Sequence record: PX969468.1
From: a phage
Length of the DNA stretch: 64,000 nucleotides
Direction: 5' to 3' (one strand)
Shown: positions 3,009 to 62,008 of the stretch, one piece after another
Layout: the number at the start of each line of letters is the position of its first letter
How positions within the stretch are numbered: position 1 is the stretch's first letter
Translations under genes and position numbers: made by a program
The notes under the pieces: model-generated
The model's database searches: none
The model's input: only the letters and a program-made list of their open reading frames with translations
Told to the model about the DNA's origin: nothing

Positions 3009-3770
3009 TCAATCCTTAACACAAGGTCTTGGATAGCCTCTGGATAACTTCCACTCAGTTAGTGACATCTCTCCGTAGAGACAGTTTACTTCCCAAGACT
3101 TTCTTGCACAAACTGCCTCCCACCACGGATTTAGCCACTTCCTGTCGTTGAAGCACCTTAAGTTTCTTCCTTTGTTATCTCGTGCCCTCCAACAGGTATC
3201 TTTCTTAGACCAATCAATACCGGGCAGGATATTATTCTTGTGCGGGTTTGGAACTATCTTTAAAGCCTCTTCCGGGTTGGCTATCGACCATTCAATCCTA
3301 GATTTAGCCTCTTCGAAAGTGTCAAAATCTCCCAACCTAACATTTACCCTATTTATCCTTCTACTTGCCCTCCACTTACCCTCTCTTTTCAGCCATACCA
3401 CACCAGTCACTGTAGAGGTATTATTGCTTTGTACATTTTCCAAGGCTCTCTTACAGTAGTTATCCCATGGCTTCAACATTTGAAGGTTTTCTATCTTGTC
3501 TACAGGCACTCCGTTAGTAGAATTTTTCTTAGATACGATATGATCGATATGCCAAGTATCTGTGACACATCCGTAAAACATGTCAAAAATTTCCCTATGT
3601 CTGCCACGTTTAACATTTGTCAGCTTATTGTACACTTGGAAATATCCAGTCTTTTTGTTGTAGTGTCCAGCCCTATTTCCATTCCTACTGTAGCCAGGTT
3701 TCCAAAAGATTAGATCACCATCCTTGTACCAATAAGGGTAATGATCATTAAAAAAGAAATGTATCTTCAT
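3009..3770 (-). CDS. HNH homing endonuclease with AP2-like DNA-binding domain
   Basis: 253 codons; H-I-D-H...N HNH core followed by segment GVVWLKREGKWRASRRINRVNVRLGDFDTFEEA typical of AP2 domains fused to phage HNH endonucleases. Confidence 0.6.
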   Translation of the reverse strand: MKIHFFFNDHYPYWYKDGDLIFWKPGYSRNGNRAGHYNKKTGYFQVYNKLTNVKRGRHREIFDMFYGCVTDTWHIDHIVSKKNSTNGVPVDKIENLQMLKPWDNYCKRALENVQSNNTSTVTGVVWLKREGKWRASRRINRVNVRLGDFDTFEEAKSRIEWSIANPEEALKIVPNPHKNNILPGIDWSKKDTCWRARDNKGRNLRCFNDRKWLNPWWEAVCARKSWEVNCLYGEMSLTEWKLSRGYPRPCVKD

Positions 3771-4464: not shown

Positions 4465-5748
4465 TTATTCCAGCACCTCCCAAGTGTCTGGGTTAACATT
4501 TCGGACGCAGATACCGACAGGGAATTGGTAGTTATTGTCTTCTGTCCTTGCTTGATATTTGAAGGTGACAAACTTGCCGATCATTTCCTGCATTCTGTCA
4601 TAGCTACGCTCCTCGTGCGTACCTTTCATCTTCATTTTAACAACAATACCTTCCTTGTCAACACAGATAAGAACACCTTCATCATTCTTATCTTTCTCAA
4701 CGTCAATAACTTTCACCTCTGCGTCGTTGAACTTTTTCCATTTCAATGCTTCAGATGTTCGCTGACCGTACTCGTATTTACCGCAGAAATTACGCATGAT
4801 AGTACCTTCATATCCTTCGGACATGAATATACCAACAGATTCTTCGCAATGATCAACTGTGTACGCAAGCTCTGCGTCAACAACCTTGATATGGTCAAGC
4901 ATCAGAGTGGTAACGGTATCCTCTGCATCCATAAGATCCTTGCAGCGTCCAGACTCTGTTTCTGGATCCCACCACACCTTGTCGCTAGGAATATCAAAAA
5001 TGTGATACTCCAGATCGTAGCTACAGTACCCACCGTAACGCAAATCATCACGAACAGGCTCAACATCGACAGGAATATCTACCTTGTTGAAGTTTTTGTA
5101 TGTTGATAAGCCTGCCTTAATTGCGGCATGACGGCGTTTTTTATCTGCCTCATAGTCTTTATCGATCTCGGCCTGAATCTCTTCCTGTGTGCGCCACCGT
5201 TTAGCAAGAGACACTATTTTCTGCAAAGGAAGACCATGAATGTATAGTTCCCCATCAAGTTGTTTAATCCCAGTGGTAGAATGGAAAGAACGAAGTTGCT
5301 CTAAAAGCTTTCCTTGAATAGGGTAGGACTTATTACCACGGGAAATAAATTTAGGCTCACCGTTTTGGAAAACAACTAGTAGACGAAGGCCATCTAACTT
5401 ACGCAAGATCCAGCAAGGTAATTTAAGTGCCTTTCCACGCTTCAGGTAGTCATGCACCAGCATGGGTAAAAGGTCAACACCCTGCTCGCAATCTTCCATA
5501 TTTTCAACATACCCCAGACGGACTTGTTTTTCCCACTTACTGATCGCTTCCAGCTCAGCCTGTTGCTCAGCTGTAGTTTCATTGGCACGACCCACGTTCT
5601 TAGGTGTGCAGATCGTCTCTTTGTATTGCAGTTTACCATCAAGCTTGCCAAACTCTACGATAACCTTATCACCATCCGTGAATACTTTCCACTGTTGGTA
5701 GCTGCCATCTTTATTCAGTGCGTACAGTGTTGTTTTGATTTGATGCAT
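4465..5748 (-). CDS. ATP-dependent DNA ligase
   Basis: 427 codons; adenylation motif K-L-D-G (KxDG) in RKLDGLRLLVV plus downstream ligase-like motifs. Confidence 0.65.
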   Translation of the reverse strand: MHQIKTTLYALNKDGSYQQWKVFTDGDKVIVEFGKLDGKLQYKETICTPKNVGRANETTAEQQAELEAISKWEKQVRLGYVENMEDCEQGVDLLPMLVHDYLKRGKALKLPCWILRKLDGLRLLVVFQNGEPKFISRGNKSYPIQGKLLEQLRSFHSTTGIKQLDGELYIHGLPLQKIVSLAKRWRTQEEIQAEIDKDYEADKKRRHAAIKAGLSTYKNFNKVDIPVDVEPVRDDLRYGGYCSYDLEYHIFDIPSDKVWWDPETESGRCKDLMDAEDTVTTLMLDHIKVVDAELAYTVDHCEESVGIFMSEGYEGTIMRNFCGKYEYGQRTSEALKWKKFNDAEVKVIDVEKDKNDEGVLICVDKEGIVVKMKMKGTHEERSYDRMQEMIGKFVTFKYQARTEDNNYQFPVGICVRNVNPDTWEVLE

Positions 5749-10628: not shown

Positions 10629-10702
10629 ACCAGTAAAAACTTAAACATCTGTACTATAAGGATTTGTATGTTTTATGTTCACTCTGGAGCAGAAGTTAGT
10701 AA

Positions 10703-10783
10703 CTGTCCGTGATACGGACACTACTGTCCGTCACGCGGACACATCTGCCCGTAATACGGACACTAACTGTCCGTGATACGGAC
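10703..10783. repeat. four tandem 17-bp palindromic sites TGTCCGT-N3-ACGGACA spaced 21-22 bp apart
   Basis: copies at 10703, 10724, 10745, 10767; first and fourth are perfect palindromes, second and third have 1-2 substitutions. Confidence 0.85.
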
Positions 10784-10826
10784 ACATAAAGAATATAACT
10801 AAAATAACTAAATAATAAAAAATAAA

Positions 10827-10886: not shown

Positions 10887-10919
10887 CTAAGTACCATGTT
10901 TTAAATTTATTACTTATTA

Positions 10920-11285
10920 TGGGTAGTGTCGGCCCTTCATTGGCACTCGCCTACGAGGGGCGAGATGCCGGGCCTCCATAGTGCACACAATAACAGAAGT
11001 GCATACATGCAGGACTGTTAACATGTGTGGGAACGAAGCGATAGCGCAGGCCAAAGGCCGAGCACTAATGTGGACCACCGACGAAAGCTTGCCAGCGCCG
11101 GAAGGAGTCGGTTGAGAGCCTCCCGCGCGAGTTCGGATAAAGTTTATGTGTGGAAACTGACAAGAAGGACCCTAAATCGCTCCACAGCTATATAAACTAT
11201 ACCAAGTAAGGCAATCGCACCAGTTTGATAGAAAAGCTCGTTACAAAGCGATACAGTGAGTTTTTCTATAACTTGAAGAGGAGGC
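10920..11285 (+). other. GC-rich structured noncoding segment (candidate ncRNA)
   Basis: no ORF of 60 codons or more on either strand across 10629..11289; nested complementary stems such as GGCCC...GGGCC, CGCC...GGCG, GGCC-AAA-GGCC, GGAG...CTCC. Confidence 0.3.
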
Positions 11286-12092: not shown

Positions 12093-12143
12093 CTGCAATA
12101 TGATGTGATACAATTTTAACTTACGAGGTCTACAGGTAATGCT

Positions 12144-12386
12144 ATGTTTAAGGTTAAGCTCGTTTTCCGTTCCATGAATGAGGATTATTTAGAAGATGAA
12201 GGTGAATTTCGTGCACTAGATGATGCAATAGATTTTGCCAACGACTTAGCTTGTATGAATACGGGTTATGGTTTATGTTGTTGGGATGGTGGTGTTCAGA
12301 TTGGTGATAGCAAGATCTTCTACTTCTACCCTGAGCCCGATAACAAACAAATTAAGTATGTTTTATTTATTTGTGCTTTACAATGA
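12144..12386 (+). CDS. hypothetical small protein
   Basis: 80 codons; weak RBS. Confidence 0.35.
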   Translation: MFKVKLVFRSMNEDYLEDEGEFRALDDAIDFANDLACMNTGYGLCCWDGGVQIGDSKIFYFYPEPDNKQIKYVLFICALQ

Positions 12387-12674
12387 GGTTGTTTTCGTGT
12401 ATCATGATGAATATCCAATTTAAAGATGAGTTTGATGGCTTTATCTCCGGATGCTTTGAAACAGGGTTCGGAGAAGGCTGAGTTACCCTTAGAGGGCTTG
12501 ATAGTGCACCACACTTAAAATGGTAGGGGCAGCCAGCACATGACGATGTGACCCCAGCCAACCTGTAATAAGGTCGAGCCAGAGCGCGGTAATGGGTATC
12601 TGGTAACCCACTCGTTGGGTCTTGTTGGTCCAGGACGCTGGGCAAGTCGCAGGGAACACCACCCTGCGGCGAAC
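12387..12674 (+). other. GC-rich noncoding segment with a 26-codon mini-ORF and stable stems (candidate leader or sRNA)
   Basis: overlapping ORFs on both strands indicate absence of stops rather than coding; lies between a gene end and a consensus promoter. Confidence 0.25.
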
Positions 12675-12703
12675 TTGACAATCAGTATTTGCCGTGATAA
12701 AAT
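12675..12703 (+). promoter_or_regulatory. sigma70-like promoter TTGACA-17-TAAAAT with TG extension
   Basis: perfect -35, 17-nt spacer, near-consensus -10; 29 nt upstream of GGAGG RBS and ATG at 12732. Confidence 0.6.
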
Positions 12704-12731
12704 CCACCTATCACGTGATAATGGAGGAAAC

Positions 12732-13070
12732 ATGGCGGATACAACTAAAAAGCGTCGCCGTAGAGGCAGACCTCTGAAAGAGGAGTCCAACGCCATTCAG
12801 CTAGAGAAGAACATTCTTGATATGAAGGAATCTTTTATAGCGATGGTTCCAGAAGCTCACAAAGTTTTAAGAGAGCTGATGTTGGATCCGAAAACCAAGC
12901 AAAATATTCGTCAAAGCATTGCAGAGTATGTCCTTGATAAGGCAGACCGAATGCAGGAAGAATATGATGAGATGTTTGGTGAAGAGGAAGAGGTGGTAGT
13001 AGAAGAGGCTGAAAAACCAGCACCTTTTATGCCATTTACCACAGAGATACAGCCTGTTGGCAATAGTTAA
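12732..13070 (+). CDS. small AT-hook-like DNA-binding protein with acidic C-terminal tail
   Basis: 112 codons from the Met with GGAGG RBS; KKRRRRGRPLKEE (RGRP core) near N-terminus; C-terminus EEYDEMFGEEEEVVVEEAEK. Confidence 0.5.
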   Translation: MADTTKKRRRRGRPLKEESNAIQLEKNILDMKESFIAMVPEAHKVLRELMLDPKTKQNIRQSIAEYVLDKADRMQEEYDEMFGEEEEVVVEEAEKPAPFMPFTTEIQPVGNS

Positions 13071-13166: not shown

Positions 13167-13241
13167 GCCCTGTTAGCTTAGTGGATAAAGCAGCGGCCTT
13201 CTAAGCCGTTGACACTGGTTCGAGTCCAGTACGGGGTGCCA
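13167..13241 (+). tRNA. tRNA-Arg (anticodon TCT)
   Basis: hand-folded cloverleaf: acceptor GCCCTGT/ACGGGGT (two G-U), D-arm GCTT/AAGC, anticodon loop CTTCTAA, T-arm ACTGG-TTCGAGT-CCAGT, encoded CCA. Confidence 0.6.
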
Positions 13242-13245
13242 AATT

Positions 13246-13332
13246 GGGGAGTTATCCCGTAGAGGTAGCGGTGTAGACTGTAAATCTATTGTCATTGCGA
13301 CTCGGGTGGTTCGACTCCACCACTCCCCACCA
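13246..13332 (+). tRNA. tRNA-Tyr (anticodon GTA), long variable arm
   Basis: acceptor GGGGAGT/ACTCCCC, anticodon stem GTAGA/TCTAT with loop CTGTAAA, T-arm GGTGG-TTCGACT-CCACC, encoded CCA. Confidence 0.6.
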
Positions 13333-13446
13333 AATTTATATTTTTAAATGCATAAATCATACAGATAATGACATTGATATTTATCGTCGTTTATACTAGT
13401 CACTAACTGCTCGAAAATCAGTGTCATTATCAGTGTAATTTATAAA

Positions 13447-13537
13447 GGAGGGTAGGGAGCAATGGTGCTCAAGCGGTCTTGAAAACCGTCCCGTTGAGGA
13501 TGACTCGATGATGGTTCGATTCCATTACTCTCCGCCA
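13447..13537 (+). tRNA. tRNA-Ser (anticodon TGA), long variable arm
   Basis: acceptor GGAGGGT/ACTCTCC, anticodon stem-loop GCGGT-CTTGAAA-ACCGT, T-loop TTCGATT, encoded CCA. Confidence 0.55.
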
Positions 13538-13635
13538 CATTGTTGACCTTGTAATTAAGCGAAAGCCGGAAGCAGAACCGGATTATCAAATGTTACAGTC
13601 GTCATCGCCGACTAGCCACATGGTCAACATATTGC

Positions 13636-13735
13636 GCTAGGTAAGCCCTTTGGCAAGGGCGAGGATTTTTAATCCTGAAAATAGACGAGGTAGTCGTTGA
13701 ATACATAGGTGGTTCGATTCCATCACCTAGCACCT
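13636..13735 (+). pseudogene. atypical tRNA-like element (Lys-TTT-like 5' half, ~30-nt insert, no encoded CCA)
   Basis: perfect 7-bp acceptor GCTAGGT/ACCTAGC, D-arm GCCC/GGGC, anticodon-like loop TTTTTAA, T-arm GGTGG-TTCGATT-CCATC, but about 30 nt between anticodon arm and T-arm and CCT instead of CCA. Confidence 0.3.
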
Positions 13736-13738
13736 TTT

Positions 13739-13814
13739 GCTGATGTAGCACAATTGGCAGTGCAATTGATTTGTAATCAATAGGTTGCAGGTTCAAGTCC
13801 TGCCATCAGCACCA
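13739..13814 (+). tRNA. tRNA-Thr (anticodon TGT)
   Basis: perfect acceptor GCTGATG/CATCAGC, D-arm GCAC/GTGC, anticodon stem ATTGA/TCAAT loop TTTGTAA, T-arm GCAGG-TTCAAGT-CCTGC, encoded CCA. Confidence 0.7.
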
Positions 13815-13815
13815 T

Positions 13816-13890
13816 GGCCCTGTAGCTGGAAGGTTCAAGCAAGCGACTCATAATCGCCAGACGGTGGTTCAATTCCACCCAGGGCCACCA
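13816..13890 (+). tRNA. tRNA-Met or Ile2 (anticodon CAT)
   Basis: perfect acceptor GGCCCTG/CAGGGCC, anticodon loop CTCATAA, T-arm GGTGG-TTCAATT-CCACC, encoded CCA. Confidence 0.6.
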
Positions 13891-13901
13891 AATAATAAAT
13901 A

Positions 13902-13978
13902 CTCCGCGTAGCTCAGCTTGGTAGAGCGCCTGATTTGGGATCAGGAGGTCGAGTGTTCGAATCACTCCGTGGAGACCA
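13902..13978 (+). tRNA. tRNA-Pro (anticodon TGG)
   Basis: acceptor CTCCGCG/CGTGGAG, canonical D-arm GCTC-AGCTTGGTA-GAGC, anticodon stem CCTGA/TCAGG loop TTTGGGA, T-arm GAGTG-TTCGAAT-CACTC, encoded CCA. Confidence 0.7.
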
Positions 13979-56380: not shown

Positions 56381-59300
56381 ATGCTTCCAATCCCTTTGCT
56401 AAAACTTGGTCGTCATTTCCTCGATAAGAGGGGTGGAGTTAAGGAACTTGCTGTTCTGTCATACCCAATAGACAACAGTGACGGTACAAGCACTACAGTG
56501 CCATATGTAAATAGCTTAGCCATACTTTTTGACGACGGTCAACTCAATATTACAGGTTACAACAGGTTCGGGGAGTGCAGGACTGGAGATCTTGACACGA
56601 TAAACTACCCAAATGAGGCTGCCTGGAACGTTGATCATGTGTGGAGAGCAGACCGTGCGTTTGTGATCCGAACTTTTGATAATCAGTTTTTCTACATCGG
56701 CTGCACTGCAGGGCTTATTGGATCTGATGCTGCAGGTGGTAATGATGTTTGTGTAAGGGAGTGGACACCTCTTCCTGAACAGATTGTTAAAGGGTTGCAC
56801 CTTGACACCCACCCGGAGCGCCTTGTTGAGGTGATGGGTGGTATTAACAACACTGTCTGGGTTATTGCAGAGGCAGAAGGCACAGGCATACTGAATCTGT
56901 ATGGGTCTGGTAACAACACCTACGGATCTTTGCATGTAGATAAAAATCAGCATGCAACCCCTGTAAAGATCGGTGAGACATCGGAAAATCCTGAAACAGG
57001 CCCTTGGAAAAACCCAAGCATTAACTGCGAGGTGCATGACAACTCTGTTATTTTCGGTGGTCCTAGAGGTTTCTGGATTGCTGGATACGACTTTCTGAGA
57101 AATAACAGTAGAAACGACCTTGTTTGGCCTCCTGTGCAGATTACTCGTAACGATTTGAGAGGCATTCCTGCAGATGAGGAGTGGAAAGGGTTTATGTGTG
57201 GTCCTAACGGGGCAATAATTGCCACACAGAGGATGCACAAACCTAATGACCAGCAGCTTGTTAACGTATTCTACGGGCAAGACGTCTGGGGAGATGACAC
57301 ATGGCGTTCCTTAAATATCACCTACACCCATGAGGTGATAATGGCTCGTGGATACGGCACAAGTGGCATTTTCTTCAATAATGGCACTAAGCAGTATCGT
57401 GGGTTCTCTCGCAACTTGTGTAATGATATTGGTGCACAATCTGCAAACAATAGCCCTAGGGCCAATTTTATCCACTATCAAGCTCTTGCTACAGCTAAAT
57501 ATGTTGAGCAACGCCTGCCAGTTAGCTGGACAGAGAGTGTTTATTTCCAAGGCATCCACAGAGAAGGTTTCTTAGGGACCTTTACTGTTGTTAATGGTAA
57601 ACTTTGGTGGTCAGGCATCCCGAGGGGAAGTTTTGCAGGATCTAACAACCTGTTTGGCGGCAGACTTAATAGTCAGGGGTTCACAGAGGTTCCTGAGAAT
57701 TGGTATAAAAATGTCCCAGTAGACAGTTGGGGTGTTGATGATATTTTCGATGTTAACGGTGTTAGCAGCGTTAGCAATATCTACATTGGTGACACGGTCA
57801 AGATGAAACTGAAGCCTCAGCCAGAGGGGGCTACGTTCATTATTGACAAAATTGAACTGGTAAATGCTGCAGGCACGGTTGTTACAGATGCAAATTACCA
57901 ATTCTCCACCAACTGGAACCACGGTGGGGCCAACGAAGTTGTTGTTACCCAATATAACAGAAATGTTAACAGACGTGGACTGTACTCTGTAAAAATAACC
58001 TATCATGACAAACATGGCACAGGCAGAACCCACACAACAAGGACTTTGAACTGGAACACTATCGTCCCAGCGTACCCGTCTGATGGTAAATGGCATACTG
58101 TCGGTAGAAACAAACAGTTCCATGTCAACGATACTGTATACTTTGGGTTGAATGCCGCCCAGCCTGCAGTAGAAGGGGATACATCGTATATGGTCAGACT
58201 CCATAGAATGGATGCTGGATCAGTAACTTATGATGTTACTCAAGAGATTTATAATCAGCGACGAAATACCTATGATAACTTGGTGCAGACACAGGCCTTA
58301 TGGGAGTTCAACCCAAACGGCAGAGGTGGTAAAATGTTGCAGGTCAATGAACAAAACTGGACATCGTTGACTGTTCACGAACACCAAAACCCTTGGCCTG
58401 ATCCTGGAAAACCTAACTCTGGTGCTCGTACACTGAAAATTGTCAGCCATGATGTAGGGTATTTCGGAATACGCTGGGAAGCTACAGTAAGATATGCTGA
58501 TGGGACAACAAACAACATAGGGATCACTCTTGGTGGCACTAGTGAGGATAACTCACTGAAAATTGCCTACACCCCTAGAGGCATCTCTATTGACAATATG
58601 GATGTTGTTCGCAACGGTTACGGCGATGTGAATGTCAAAGTTACTCTTGGCGAACATCTTGGTGGGGAAAGGATCATCATGTATGCCTTTGATCATGACC
58701 CTCGCACCAATGGAACCTATGCAGACCAAGCATGGAGTTACCTGATAAGCGCACCTGAGCCAAATACTAAAGAATTCTACTATGGTATGAAGCGAGATGT
58801 GTGCAAGAAAACAGGAACACATGACTGGATTGCTATCTGCGTTAAAGATGAGCGCACAGCTTGGGATGAGCCTGTTAACAGATGGTTCATAGGTATTCCT
58901 ACCAGAAGTGATAAGTATGTCGCAGAGTATATTGTATGCATGGGCGGTACCAACCTGAACATGTGTTGGAACGAAGATGTAAACAAATACTCTGATTATG
59001 ACTATATGAGGGATTACTCTTGCAATCTGTGGTTTAACCAAACTACAGGTTACCCTCCGCGTCAGGCAAGGGTAAATCCTGCAATCTTTACAGATACTCA
59101 GGTTTTCTTGACAAAACAGGCCAACGAGGTTCAGACCTTCAAGAATAAATACGATCCTAACAAGTGGTTCTACAACTGTTACGGCGCATTTTTCTGGGGC
59201 CCTGGTGAGTTACCTGGTGGAGGATCTTGCTTGAATGAGGCAACTTACGCCAGTGACTACATCATGGGGCAGGTCAAGAAGTATAAGATAATTCCCGGTC

Positions 59301-62008
59301 CTGAAACTCTGGGTAATGCCGTTGACCCTTATATCATCATGACTGCACTGAGATCCAACATGGACGGGACATCCATGTCTATGCAAATTCCGGTAACAAA
59401 CGGGTACAAACGTGTTGTGATGATCATTAAGTGCGACTTAATAGGTAAACAAGTTCTTGCAGAAAACGGGACATCCACACATCCTTTTGAGGTTGCTCTG
59501 CACTATCAGTTTGCTGACTCACCTTTTGCAGGCGATAAGAGAATATCTGATACAGATGCACAGCGTTGTAAGAAAGTATTGTTGGGTGCAGGTTGGTGGT
59601 GGTATGAGTTTGATTTAACAGACAAATTCACCGACACGTCTAAAGTTGTAACAGGACTTCGTCTAGACCTTGGTGAGAACATGCACAAAGCTGTTTGTGA
59701 TGGCACCTATGGTGACCCTACAATATACCTAAAATATATTTCTTTTGAGCATCCGGAAGATGTTGTCTACGGTCCAAAACTGAGATTGTTTGGCAGTTGG
59801 ATTGCAAAAGATAGGGTAGGGATGGGTAAGAAGGTGAGAGGGTTCTTGGTTGATGCAGGAACAGAAGACATGCTGGTTAATGCAGTATGGCCTGAATTAC
59901 CCGGGACTCAGTGGAACAACTCAGCCAAATCTATAAACTGGTTTAACATTCATAGAGCCATGTGGACCACCAACTGCTACTTGTGGAGAGAGCTTAACGA
60001 TCAGGCCTTTGGCTTCAGCGATGGTAGAAGGATGGCGATCATTTGCTGGACAACACTGCAAAGATGTTATGACCATGACTACGAGATTGGGGGCAGGGCA
60101 TGGAAAAATATCAGGGACAGAATCATAACCAATTTTGCAGACGACAACGGTGGTGGAGCACATAACTTTGGCACAAGCCGACTCATCCATTTGAACGGAT
60201 CCTCAGCCTACAAGAAAGAAGGTTACTCTGGGTCTATGATCGAGTGGGGTCTGGTGAAAGATGCTCGCGTATTGATGGGCCAGCAACTTGCTGCCGCAAT
60301 AGGTCCCAGCGCAGTGCAGTCGGTTAAACCAGCGTGGTTCGATATTCCAATATGGTCATCTGGAACACCAGGAACTGCTGCAATCAATCCTACTACCGGG
60401 GATCTGGAAATCTCTTGGGAGGACTTGAAGCAGGTTGGGGGCTGGGATAAGACAGGGTACCAGGTGCAATGGTGGAGGTCTGACGGATCGTTAGCTGCTG
60501 ATGAGTTTGTTAAGGACAACTTCTACACCATGCCCTCTGCAAAAGCACAACAACTGTTCGGTCAGTCTACCCCGTCAACGATCACCATGTCCATGTGCTG
60601 TAAAGACAACAGGACTGGAGCTTTGGGCCCAAGGGTTGCTAAAGTTTTCTCAGGTATCAAATGGAATCTTCCTGTTCAAAGTGTTGCATGGAAGCAAATA
60701 GGCGATAACAAGCTGCTAGTTACCCCAGCTTGTCAGTTCAACGCAACTCTTAACGTTGATCCTGCTGTTGCGGCAAACTCAGCTAAAGCTTCTGACTTCT
60801 CTGTGTCTAACACTGCCATGGCAGATGTGAGGAAGATTGACACGCTGAACGCCAGAATTACCTGTAAAAACACTTATGGCACATTTCAGATCATCAACAA
60901 CTTCACAGACGCGGATTCTAAGGTAGTGAGGACAGCAAGCCAGACTCTGAGTTTAGGAACTCTGGCCTATGCGGCCCTGATCACTGAACAGTCAGCAACA
61001 CTCCAAGGGGGTGGTGTAGGCAAGTCCATTACAACACCTGTGTGGAAGCCAAATGAGTGGGTTGTGTTTGATTTGACCGTGGACTTCTCCAGCGATAATA
61101 ACTGGACATGGGTAAGGAATTGCTTGTCACAACTGATGGGTGGTCCAAGCTCCGTTAGTGATAGCCACTACTCCACTGACCCGAGTGTGTTTCAGGTGGG
61201 TAAAACTCACCCGGAGACTGGAGCAACGTTGCCTGACAGGAAGTATGCTTTGGTTTGCATCTCTTACGGGAAGGCAGATGTCACCTTCTCAGGGACACAC
61301 ACTTATAACGGAACCTACAACTTCTCAAGGAAGTATAGTCTCAAAGCAGGGAACATTATAGACGAGGTTGGTGTGCTGTATAATCCTGGCAACGGCATAG
61401 GGATTGTGGGCGGTAAACTGCAGATGCAGGAACCTTCTATTACCCCTTCCAACGTATCCGGGATTAGAAAGACTTGGGAAAGTAGTAATACCAACATTGC
61501 AACAGTGGATGCCACCACAGGGCTGGTAACATTTAAAGCTACTGGGAATGTCACCATAAAGTTTGTAGTTACAGATGATGCAGGCCGCAAAACGTCTTCA
61601 ACATCGTTTACTGTCAGACAGATGGCACCTCAGTGGTTTATTTGGGAAGGAAATCCTCTTGACGGGGCTTACCCTAGACCTGCAGGAACGTCCAATATGA
61701 GGGTCTTTACCGGTCCGGTCATGAACAATCCGACCACAACCACCAACCCTACATTTTTTGGTGCTTACATACCTGAAATTATTGGCCTACCAAGGAACCA
61801 GATACAACTGCTTTTCGGAGCAGGTGTTGATGGTCTAGCCACTTTTGGGTACAGTGACAACATTGATGCAGCCAGAAGCTCGGGTTGGATTGGATTTAAG
61901 TTTCAGTGGAACCCTGGTGGTAGAACATTAGGTGTTGCAAGCATAGGTGTTATGCTACCTGGTGACCAGCAATACCATCTCGAAGCTTATACAAACTTCC
62001 CTAGTTAA
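56381..62008 (+). CDS. very large virion-associated protein (putative receptor-binding/tail protein) with Ig-like domain
   Basis: 1875 codons, uninterrupted; N-terminal repeats with YGSGNNTYGSLHVD-type motifs (propeller-like, tentative); C-terminal segment SITPSNVSGIRKTWESSNTNIATVDATTGLVTFKATGNVTIKFVVTDDAGRKTSSTSFTV typical of bacterial Ig-like domains. Confidence 0.5.
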   Translation: MLPIPLLKLGRHFLDKRGGVKELAVLSYPIDNSDGTSTTVPYVNSLAILFDDGQLNITGYNRFGECRTGDLDTINYPNEAAWNVDHVWRADRAFVIRTFDNQFFYIGCTAGLIGSDAAGGNDVCVREWTPLPEQIVKGLHLDTHPERLVEVMGGINNTVWVIAEAEGTGILNLYGSGNNTYGSLHVDKNQHATPVKIGETSENPETGPWKNPSINCEVHDNSVIFGGPRGFWIAGYDFLRNNSRNDLVWPPVQITRNDLRGIPADEEWKGFMCGPNGAIIATQRMHKPNDQQLVNVFYGQDVWGDDTWRSLNITYTHEVIMARGYGTSGIFFNNGTKQYRGFSRNLCNDIGAQSANNSPRANFIHYQALATAKYVEQRLPVSWTESVYFQGIHREGFLGTFTVVNGKLWWSGIPRGSFAGSNNLFGGRLNSQGFTEVPENWYKNVPVDSWGVDDIFDVNGVSSVSNIYIGDTVKMKLKPQPEGATFIIDKIELVNAAGTVVTDANYQFSTNWNHGGANEVVVTQYNRNVNRRGLYSVKITYHDKHGTGRTHTTRTLNWNTIVPAYPSDGKWHTVGRNKQFHVNDTVYFGLNAAQPAVEGDTSYMVRLHRMDAGSVTYDVTQEIYNQRRNTYDNLVQTQALWEFNPNGRGGKMLQVNEQNWTSLTVHEHQNPWPDPGKPNSGARTLKIVSHDVGYFGIRWEATVRYADGTTNNIGITLGGTSEDNSLKIAYTPRGISIDNMDVVRNGYGDVNVKVTLGEHLGGERIIMYAFDHDPRTNGTYADQAWSYLISAPEPNTKEFYYGMKRDVCKKTGTHDWIAICVKDERTAWDEPVNRWFIGIPTRSDKYVAEYIVCMGGTNLNMCWNEDVNKYSDYDYMRDYSCNLWFNQTTGYPPRQARVNPAIFTDTQVFLTKQANEVQTFKNKYDPNKWFYNCYGAFFWGPGELPGGGSCLNEATYASDYIMGQVKKYKIIPGPETLGNAVDPYIIMTALRSNMDGTSMSMQIPVTNGYKRVVMIIKCDLIGKQVLAENGTSTHPFEVALHYQFADSPFAGDKRISDTDAQRCKKVLLGAGWWWYEFDLTDKFTDTSKVVTGLRLDLGENMHKAVCDGTYGDPTIYLKYISFEHPEDVVYGPKLRLFGSWIAKDRVGMGKKVRGFLVDAGTEDMLVNAVWPELPGTQWNNSAKSINWFNIHRAMWTTNCYLWRELNDQAFGFSDGRRMAIICWTTLQRCYDHDYEIGGRAWKNIRDRIITNFADDNGGGAHNFGTSRLIHLNGSSAYKKEGYSGSMIEWGLVKDARVLMGQQLAAAIGPSAVQSVKPAWFDIPIWSSGTPGTAAINPTTGDLEISWEDLKQVGGWDKTGYQVQWWRSDGSLAADEFVKDNFYTMPSAKAQQLFGQSTPSTITMSMCCKDNRTGALGPRVAKVFSGIKWNLPVQSVAWKQIGDNKLLVTPACQFNATLNVDPAVAANSAKASDFSVSNTAMADVRKIDTLNARITCKNTYGTFQIINNFTDADSKVVRTASQTLSLGTLAYAALITEQSATLQGGGVGKSITTPVWKPNEWVVFDLTVDFSSDNNWTWVRNCLSQLMGGPSSVSDSHYSTDPSVFQVGKTHPETGATLPDRKYALVCISYGKADVTFSGTHTYNGTYNFSRKYSLKAGNIIDEVGVLYNPGNGIGIVGGKLQMQEPSITPSNVSGIRKTWESSNTNIATVDATTGLVTFKATGNVTIKFVVTDDAGRKTSSTSFTVRQMAPQWFIWEGNPLDGAYPRPAGTSNMRVFTGPVMNNPTTTTNPTFFGAYIPEIIGLPRNQIQLLFGAGVDGLATFGYSDNIDAARSSGWIGFKFQWNPGGRTLGVASIGVMLPGDQQYHLEAYTNFPS

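Follow-up and report, generated by a model that had tools for sequence, protein, structure and literature searches.

Comparative evidence for an unnamed family of pseudoknotted non-coding RNAs in Vequintavirus, T4 and other phages

Stable small RNAs encoded beside the phage transfer RNA (tRNA) genes are known from T4, where the species 1 and 2 RNAs (rnaC/rnaD) have no known function, and GOLLD and ROOL are large orphan phage RNAs associated with tRNA genes. The put RNAs of phage HK022 act in cis as polymerase-modifying antiterminators and consist of two simple stem-loops just after a promoter. Here we describe an RNA element in a gap of a Vequintavirus (rV5/FV3-like) genome, sequence record PX969468.1, of which a stretch of 64,000 nucleotides (the window) was analysed. 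The gap, at positions 12387-12674 on the + strand, separates open reading frame (ORF) 75 from P74, the promoter of ORF74, and we conclude that it almost certainly encodes a structured non-coding RNA, from a family that had not been named before and is also present in T4.

Like the T4 species 1 and 2 RNAs, the element is phage-encoded, non-coding and linked to tRNA or stable-RNA genes in virulent coliphages; unlike them, it forms a pseudoknotted three-way junction and is found across phage families. BLAST found the element at one place per T4-like genome, and it is therefore not a paralogue of the species 1 and 2 RNAs. GOLLD and ROOL are also complex-folded phage RNAs near tRNA genes, but they are 5-8 times larger and belong to other hosts and phage groups, and no match to either was listed in the Rfam scans. 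The element resembles the put RNAs in lacking a dedicated neighbour gene, in lying sense within early transcription units and in having terminators downstream, whereas its pseudoknotted junction and the fresh promoter that often follows it set it apart. Riboswitch aptamers with a three-way junction and a pseudoknot have the invariant joining strands, the closing pseudoknot, the occasional tandems and the sense upstream placement in common with the element. In contrast to riboswitches, the element is without a consistent downstream gene family, and copies lie between tRNA genes or right before promoters. Ribozymes of the hepatitis delta virus (HDV)-like and theta type also occur in phages, often near tRNA genes, and theta ribozymes adjoin phage tRNAs (PMC10879173).

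Compared to described RNA families, the element is new in the sense that none of them matched it. A scan of Rfam 15, a check suggested in the initial annotation, gave no match in 12387-12674 at the gathering thresholds or at E values up to 10. At E values up to 1, no match was found at the element in T4, Pylas, pf16, a Kagunavirus, two other T4-like phages and the loci L034 and L202, and no Rfam riboswitch family was among the matches. No prior description of the RNA was found in the searchable literature, and it may be present without a name in bulk collections of predicted viral RNA structures (e.g. PMC10690425). A tRNA, tRNA-like RNA or transfer-messenger RNA (tmRNA) was rejected, as ARAGORN and Rfam found nothing at 12387-12674, and T-arm-like and anticodon-loop readings of single hairpins were rejected by ARAGORN, Rfam and inspection. 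Mimicry of the GTPase centre of 23S ribosomal RNA, with which the element has a GUAAUA hexaloop in common, was dismissed because the order of the hairpins round the junction is reversed. A CsrA sponge acting via GGA in the 3' hairpin loops was also dismissed, since two or three GGA per 150 nt is the chance level.

Fold and covariation of the RNA

The core of the RNA lies at 12526-12603 on the + strand, and the window copy has every element of the family (Table 1). From 5' to 3' the order is P1(5'), three nucleotides that are usually CAA or CAG, the 5' strand of the pseudoknot, an optional P2, P1(3'), P4(5'), a single A, P3 (ACCU-GUAAUA-AGGU), C-N-A, P5 (GC-loop-GC), GGUAA(N)(N), P4(3'), a spacer of 0-8 nt and the 3' strand of the pseudoknot. 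P1 encloses P2 and is directly followed by the three-way junction of P4, P3 and P5, and the pseudoknot of 3-5 bp joins the interior of P1 to the tail 3' of P4. The joining strand J5/4 starts with GGUAA in every copy compared, and J3/5 reads C-N-A except in one contig, which has CGG. All representatives but L035 (AUAAUA) have G-U-N-N-N-A as the P3 loop, and the frame of P5, AGCC...GCGG, is constant across copies.

The fold was first of all supported by 27 distinct T4-like copies that had been aligned with plain MAFFT, blind to structure. In this alignment 94.5% of the cells were in standard pairs compared to 83.8% in shuffled alignments (0 of 500 shuffles were as high), pairing fell to 20-46% with the partners slid by 1-3 columns, and the covariation score was 0.268 versus 0.089. 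Double substitutions were found in all four pseudoknot pairs, one of which was seen as CG (16), UA (7), AU (3) and GC (1), and covariation was also seen in the two P4 pairs and in the pair that closes P3. The outer pair of P2 was AU in 14, CG in 12 and GC in one copy, with one pair lost by joint deletion. RNAalifold, applied to the same alignment, recovered P2, P3, P5 and the pseudoknot helix independently.

The comparison was extended to the whole family with strings marked by hand for 27 representatives of all lineages and checked by machine against the loci, and 26 of the 27 were verified, the exception being the string for L012, which contained a typing error. This revealed 16 distinct P1, 20 pseudoknot and 12 P4 helices with Watson-Crick or G-U pairs at nearly every position, while P3 alternated between ACCU/AGGU and GCCU/AGGC and P5 between GC/GC, GCC/GGC and GUC/GAC. 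The P4 and pseudoknot pairs were tabulated by hand because alignment with a covariance model was inconsistent between types for the P4 3' and pseudoknot 3' strands. A 63-row alignment derived from the covariance model, which is fitted to the model and hence biased towards its structure, showed double changes in all five P1 pairs and had 95.6% of its cells paired compared to 80.7% when shuffled. The model, R1, was built on the T4-like alignment only, with neither an rV5 sequence nor the pseudoknot. In the window it matched 12521-12612 with 37.1 bits (E 3e-7), the sole significant match in the 64 kb (next E 0.87), and it recovered every phage copy, including T4, Pylas, pf16 and the second copies of tandems, at 30-145 bits.

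The element had the sense orientation relative to the surrounding genes in every phage compared. G-U pairs, which are found in P4 of the window and T4 and in the pseudoknot of several T4-like phages, form only when the + strand is read, and the folded molecule thus has the polarity of the transcript. On the minus strand of the window all three frames are open across the core; among relatives, open frames vary in length and frame, and none covers the core in L029 or pf16. The antisense ORFs had no PHROG match, and a PHROG search together with the comparison of open frames among relatives found no conserved ORF spanning the element. A conserved, translated overlapping ORF, named in the initial annotation as the finding that would refute its view, was accordingly not found for the GC-rich part. 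Judged by computation on the sequences, these patterns show strong purifying selection on an RNA fold and none on a protein. The candidate small RNA of the initial annotation was thereby supported and made more precise, as the RNA can be assigned to a pseudoknotted family that is widely shared, and the complementary blocks noted there are, on overwhelming comparative evidence, real helices.

Distribution and genomic setting

When the gap was compared with 50,697 phage records in a sensitive BLAST search, 977 records matched. Vequintavirus relatives accounted for 119, and the rest matched only 12554-12598 (CCAGCCAACCTGTAATAAGGTCGAGCCAGAGCGCGGTAATGGGTA), at 85-95% identity; about 850 T4-like records carry this match. 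The T4-like carriers are phages of Escherichia, Shigella, Klebsiella, Yersinia, Salmonella and Citrobacter, and include T4 itself (L174, NC_000866, record 64840-64940). Pattern scans of viral and metagenome contigs revealed further groups, namely a diverged sister lineage of rV5-like phages (L034, L182 and L187; V2, the window lineage being V), the N4-like Klebsiella phage Pylas (Schitoviridae) with related contigs of 46-70 kb, and contigs placed by BLAST as Kagunavirus-like siphophages together with the Pseudomonas putida phage pf16. Uncultured phage contigs also carry the element, among them the 96-kb L035, which is without a cultured relative in the collection. Its carriers come from at least four phage lineages that are unrelated to one another, and from two host genera. 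Tandem copies were observed in three large T4-like contigs (L038 5077-5307, L041 8964-9195 and L199 306-537), in which the core of the second copy is diverged yet compensated (P3 GCCU/AGGC, P5 GUC/GAC, pseudoknot ACCA/UGGU).

The window copy had no match at E values up to 1 in 5,426 complete E. coli genomes, prophages included, in a single DNA search, which points to a function specific to the carrier phages. The pattern used to scan bacterial genomes (GGTCGAGCCNNNRNGCGGTAA) was too loose, with about 140 chance matches expected by our own estimate. Its matches were rejected as chance; those inspected lay in unrelated sequence that had nothing else of the element, for the most part in GC-rich genomes, and 100 bacterial loci with the same 21-mer scored at most 19.7 bits under R1. 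The absence from bacteria is shown for E. coli only.

In T4-like phages, the element lies in the short gap upstream of vs.8, after Ip4, ipII or denV. In T4 it is located at about 64.9 kb, between denV and vs.8 and outside the tRNA cluster. The GenBank coding sequence (CDS) of T4 vs.8 (64253-64912) starts at an ATG within the element. The start that is conserved across T4-like phages, ATGAGAACATTT, lies about 90 nt downstream of the annotated one, and the T4 vs.8 call therefore looks over-extended by about 30 codons. The vs.8 protein is a member of phrog_1488, with a weak P-loop match of the terminase-ATPase type. The DNA examined from 14 non-T4 loci and the window yielded no homologue of vs.8. 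For the neighbour genes, Pfam and PHROGs gave no informative function, and a search for a conserved partner protein in cis yielded none.

Other phages carry the element in other settings. At least 15 of the 23 non-T4 loci have tRNA genes on the same strand within about 1 kb; L202, L184 and L044 have tRNA genes on either side of the element, and in the window the tRNA cluster begins at 13167, about 560 nt downstream of it. In Pylas it is found after the tRNA cluster, in a CDS-free stretch of about 1 kb, bracketed by GUUGUG/CACAAC stems. In pf16 it fills the space from the gp58 stop to an annotated Rho-independent terminator, after which a phage promoter follows, and L035 and L213 have a terminator shortly 3' of it. 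The Kagunavirus-like L214 has a promoter, TTGACA-17-GATACT, 9 nt after the pseudoknot, comparable to P74 in the window. Downstream neighbours thus differ, being vs.8, ORF74, tRNA genes, a terminator or a promoter, which shows that the module is independent of any particular neighbour gene. What the settings have in common is an association with tRNA or stable-RNA regions and with places where transcription units end. The gene-free stretch of Pylas (L175 2590-3880; record about 66.5-67.8 kb) has several units bracketed by GUUGUG/CACAAC, one of which is the RNA described here; another unit has a tRNA-like T-arm, and 3516-3651 has weak tmRNA-type Rfam matches (E 0.002-0.01). This stretch looks like an array of processed stable RNAs.

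Possible modes of action

The explanation we favour, with about even confidence in it as worded here, is an autonomous, stable RNA that acts in trans. Its transcription would start at P75, jointly with ORF75, and/or at the promoter-like site of 12377-12405, and the RNA would accumulate as a stable species released from, or terminated within, transcripts of the early and tRNA region. The invariant junction, clamped by P1, P4 and the pseudoknot, would then be offered to a conserved partner. Such a partner would most likely be a host or phage component of tRNA metabolism, translation or RNA processing, as suggested by the association with tRNA clusters, and the RNA might be a decoy; this part of the explanation, a binder or decoy acting in trans, is put forward tentatively. 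The core is near-identical in phages of Enterobacteriaceae and Pseudomonas while the helices drift, which indicates a constraint on the surface of the junction. As far as the sequences tell, this constraint would fit the binding of a conserved host or phage macromolecule, and also a catalytic or ligand pocket. Conceivable, though rather unlikely, is a new functional class of RNA in the best-studied virulent phages, T4 included, with the junction as its active or binding site; the RNA would then be either a new self-cleaving ribozyme or a decoy that binds a ligand or a protein and counters host defences acting on tRNAs or nucleotide signals.

Several points weigh against this explanation. The z-score of the minimum free energy from single-sequence folding was unremarkable on the + strand (-1.48) as on the - strand (-0.62), so that thermodynamics alone is uninformative, and the consensus nested fold, with the pseudoknot not counted, has -15.0 kcal/mol compared to -24.7 kcal/mol for the minimum free energy structure. 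Outside the T4-like B/C group, the register of the 3' strand of the pseudoknot was set by eye, and the 63-row alignment has the bias given above. The RNA's ends, its abundance and its stability are presumed, and the partner is hypothetical. The constant position just upstream of a gene start in T4-like phages also fits a cis-acting leader, and an invariant junction with a pseudoknot and occasional tandems is the classic look of a riboswitch aptamer or a self-cleaving ribozyme.

A cis-acting leader of the downstream genes, a riboswitch-like aptamer or a put-type antiterminator for vs.8 in T4-like phages and for ORF74 and the tRNA cluster in the window, was considered improbable. It would account for the sense placement upstream of a gene start in all T4-like phages, the invariant junction strands with the pseudoknot, the tandem copies in L038, L041 and L199, and the order of terminator and gene directly downstream in L035 and pf16; moreover, no terminator lies between the RNA and ORF74, so that read-through transcripts would carry the RNA as a leader. 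However, the downstream genes are unrelated between phage groups, the non-T4 DNA examined yielded no vs.8 homologue, three loci have the element between tRNA genes, and an independent promoter separates it from the next gene in the window and in the Kagunavirus-like phages. By inspection, no alternative pairing of the conserved 3' strand with a terminator or a Shine-Dalgarno sequence was found, and no expression platform was recognised in the window, T4 and pf16, where no systematic search for one was made. A self-cleaving ribozyme, or a dedicated module for cutting polycistronic transcripts of the early and tRNA regions, appeared quite improbable, even though variable contexts, occasional tandems, phage tRNA arrays and an invariant junction core are typical of small self-cleaving RNAs. 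The order of strands (P1 5', pseudoknot 5', hairpin, P1 3', domain, pseudoknot 3') is formally that of the nested double pseudoknot of HDV-like and theta ribozymes, but the helix lengths and the P1.1 element of the latter do not correspond to those of the element. The catalytic cytosine of these ribozymes occupies the first position of J4/2 and is intolerant to change (PMC10879173). In contrast, the first base after P4 3' is not conserved in the element, being A in the window, T4, L202, L035, L052 and L208, U in the T4-like B/C group, pf16, L034 and L182, C in L025 and G in the Kagunavirus-like phages, with no spacer in Pylas and L028. P2, the equivalent of P3/L3 in HDV-like ribozymes, is free in sequence and length and is an unpaired loop in the Pylas, L028 and L202 types, and the conserved part of the element is the branched domain that is dispensable in HDV-like ribozymes. 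For these reasons, and as no HDV-type family of Rfam matched, an HDV-like or theta identity was rejected. With regard to ribozymes in general, no Rfam ribozyme family matched the window at E values up to 10 or eight other members at up to 1, and no conserved candidate cleavage dinucleotide was identified.

The initial annotation had also proposed a leader-peptide type of element. Such an element, with translation of an ORF of 25-32 codons (12383/12404-12481) as the functional feature and the downstream structures as its attenuator, we regard as very improbable. The mini-ORF exists, although at 12404-12481 and not at 12406-12486 as first given. Its frame also opens at an ATG at 12383, giving 32 aa and an ATGA overlap with the ORF75 stop, and the ORF is annotated as a hypothetical protein in some records and matches phrog_6828, a family it forms. 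The sister lineage retains a strong Shine-Dalgarno sequence followed by MKDEFDGF* (8 aa), so that the heptapeptide KDEFDGF is common to the mini-ORFs of both rV5-like lineages. All this would favour a leader peptide. The length of the ORF is not conserved, however, with 8 codons in the sister lineage compared to 25-32 in the window, and the 21 shared nucleotides are more conserved than the neighbouring coding sequence. Furthermore, the ORF is followed by no terminator or terminator/antiterminator alternative, and the covarying part lies downstream of it and is found in many phages without such an ORF, between tRNA genes or after an unrelated gene. The mini-ORF may be translated, as a side feature at most that is distinct from the conserved GC-rich element. 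Hardly credible at all was a non-functional remnant of horizontally acquired GC-rich DNA, another proposal made at the outset, or a protein-coding gene on either strand. The high local GC content and the many open frames agree with such an origin, but compensatory substitutions maintain five helices and mark ongoing selection on the RNA fold, the open frames vary among relatives with no PHROG match for the antisense ones, and no bacterial source was found, with no match in E. coli and only chance matches to the pattern elsewhere.

An RNA with a complex fold and a conservation of riboswitch or ribozyme grade is apparently unannotated in T4, beneath an over-extended vs.8 start codon, and in hundreds of coliphages that are candidates for therapy. 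Since T4 genetics is easy, its function is directly testable. Whether it is a decoy, a ribozyme or an effector of polymerase or ribosome, phage-host biology would gain a new RNA player. Many genomes would also have their gene calls corrected, as spurious hypothetical proteins are annotated over the element.

The rest of the gap and its surroundings

The position of the gap given in the initial annotation was confirmed at both ends, by the stop of ORF75 and by P74, and the GC-rich character was also borne out, with a GC content of 0.545 over 12500-12699 compared to 0.375-0.42 in the flanks. ORFs overlap on both strands as reported, those on the minus strand measuring 104, 93 and 72 aa and ORF74 having a TTG extension on the plus strand, and some records annotate small hypothetical proteins over the gap on either strand. 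P74 bounds the RNA on its 3' side and lies outside the RNA proper. The coordinates of all features are collected in Table 1.

Table 1. Features of the gap and its flanking genes, in window coordinates (V, window lineage; V2, sister lineage)
Feature	Position	Strand	Remarks
rV5 ORF75	12144-12386	+	stop TGA at 12384-12386
Promoter-like site TTTACA-17-TATCAT	12377..12405	+	10/12 in consensus scan; start near 12412
Mini-ORF MMNIQFKDEFDGFISGCFETGFGEG, 25 aa	12404..12481	+	begins ATGATGAAT; TGA ends at 12481
Conserved block AAAGATGAGTTTGATGGCTTT (= AAAGATGARTTTGATGGCTTT)	12423..12443	+	20-21 of 21 positions identical between the two rV5-like lineages
Hairpin H0 (GCUU..UCUCCGGAU / GUUCGGAGAAGGC)	12438..12478	+	predicted -17.9 kcal/mol; window lineage only
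Leader: hairpin H1 CCCUUAGAGGG, then CUUGAUAGUGCACCACACUUAAAAUGGUAGG	12486..12529	+	near-identical in V and V2
P1	12526-12529 with 12552-12555	+	
Pseudoknot	12533-12536 (CCAG) with 12600-12603 (CUGG)	+	
P2 hairpin	12537-12550	+	
P4	12557-12559 with 12595-12597	+	
P3, loop GUAAUA	12561-12574	+	
J3/5 CGA	12575-12577	+	
P5	12578-12587	+	
J5/4 GGUAAUG	12588-12594	+	
Accessory hairpin A (ACCCA-CUCGU-UGGGU)	12606..12620	+	CCC...GGG counterpart in sister lineage
Accessory hairpin B (GUCCAG-GACG-CUGGGC)	12628..12643	+	stem covaries with sister lineage
Accessory hairpin C (GUCGCAGGG-AACACCA-CCCUGCGGC)	12646..12670	+	predicted -17.1 kcal/mol; window lineage only
Sigma-70 promoter P74, TTGACA-17-TAAAAT	12675-12703	+	11/12 in consensus scan; 'promoter P74' in rV5 record
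ORF74	12732-13070	+	phrog_3330; gene controlled by P74

An alignment of the window lineage with its sister lineage, in which the coding sequence of ORF75 is about 70% identical by eye, showed two blocks in the gap that are nearly invariant despite the much greater divergence of that coding sequence. The block at 12423-12443 encodes KDEFDGF and lies just upstream of the -35 box of a promoter in the sister lineage. The leader block CCCTTAGAGGGCTTGATAGTGCACCACAC...AAAATGGTAGG (about 12487-12529) runs directly into P1 and differs between V and V2 at few positions and by an indel of 1-2 nt, while its flanks are diverged. Its fold with hairpin H1 is putative. The promoter-like site TTTACA-17-TATCAT is retained in the window lineage, whereas the sister lineage has lost it by deletion and has instead, some 45 nt further downstream, the consensus promoter TTGACA-17-TATACT. 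The latter occupies the place of hairpin H0 of the window and stands directly before the conserved leader, so that transcription from it would begin just ahead of the leader. The site at 12377..12405 is a possible promoter of the RNA's own, judging from its sequence, and with a promoter or promoter-like site in front of the RNA in each, both lineages plausibly transcribe it from its own promoter.

Of the hairpins 3' of the core, A is missing from L196 by deletion and was flagged as weakly terminator-like in a scan, but no T-run follows it. The stem of hairpin B is CCAG/CUGG in the window and CUGG/CCAG in the sister lineage. A terminator scan found no intrinsic terminator with a T-run in 12387-12732.

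Further upstream in the window, four direct repeats of 21-22 nt, each with the perfect palindrome TGTCCGTGATACGGACA, were observed at 10700-10785 and are operator-like in look. They lie upstream of the first GC-rich segment at 10905-11205 (GC 0.52), which had only a chance-level Rfam match (rli43, 24.6 bits compared to a gathering score of 100). This segment was rejected as a second copy of the RNA, as it had no R1 match and is limited to the 119 Vequintavirus records.

Within the tRNA cluster (13167-13978), ARAGORN found seven tRNAs and Rfam six. At 13636-13734, ARAGORN called a 99-nt 'tRNA-???' with a four-base anticodon (atcc), which scored 35.5 bits as a tRNA in Rfam and is annotated as tRNA-Lys in one related record. 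This could be an intron-containing or otherwise unusual tRNA.

At identities of 95-99%, 119 phage records match the window at 12100-12760. Among these matches are 18 GenBank records (MG0656xx) named 'Campylobacter phage', with C. jejuni as host, that share 95-98% identity with E. coli rV5-like phages in this region, which suggests that the names reflect mislabelling or contamination. In rV5, the large subunit of the terminase is annotated as an interrupted gene of three joined pieces, ORF64ABC; L001 from 5483-5660 onward corresponds to 58027-60872 of the rV5 record, and the counterpart lies further along the window.

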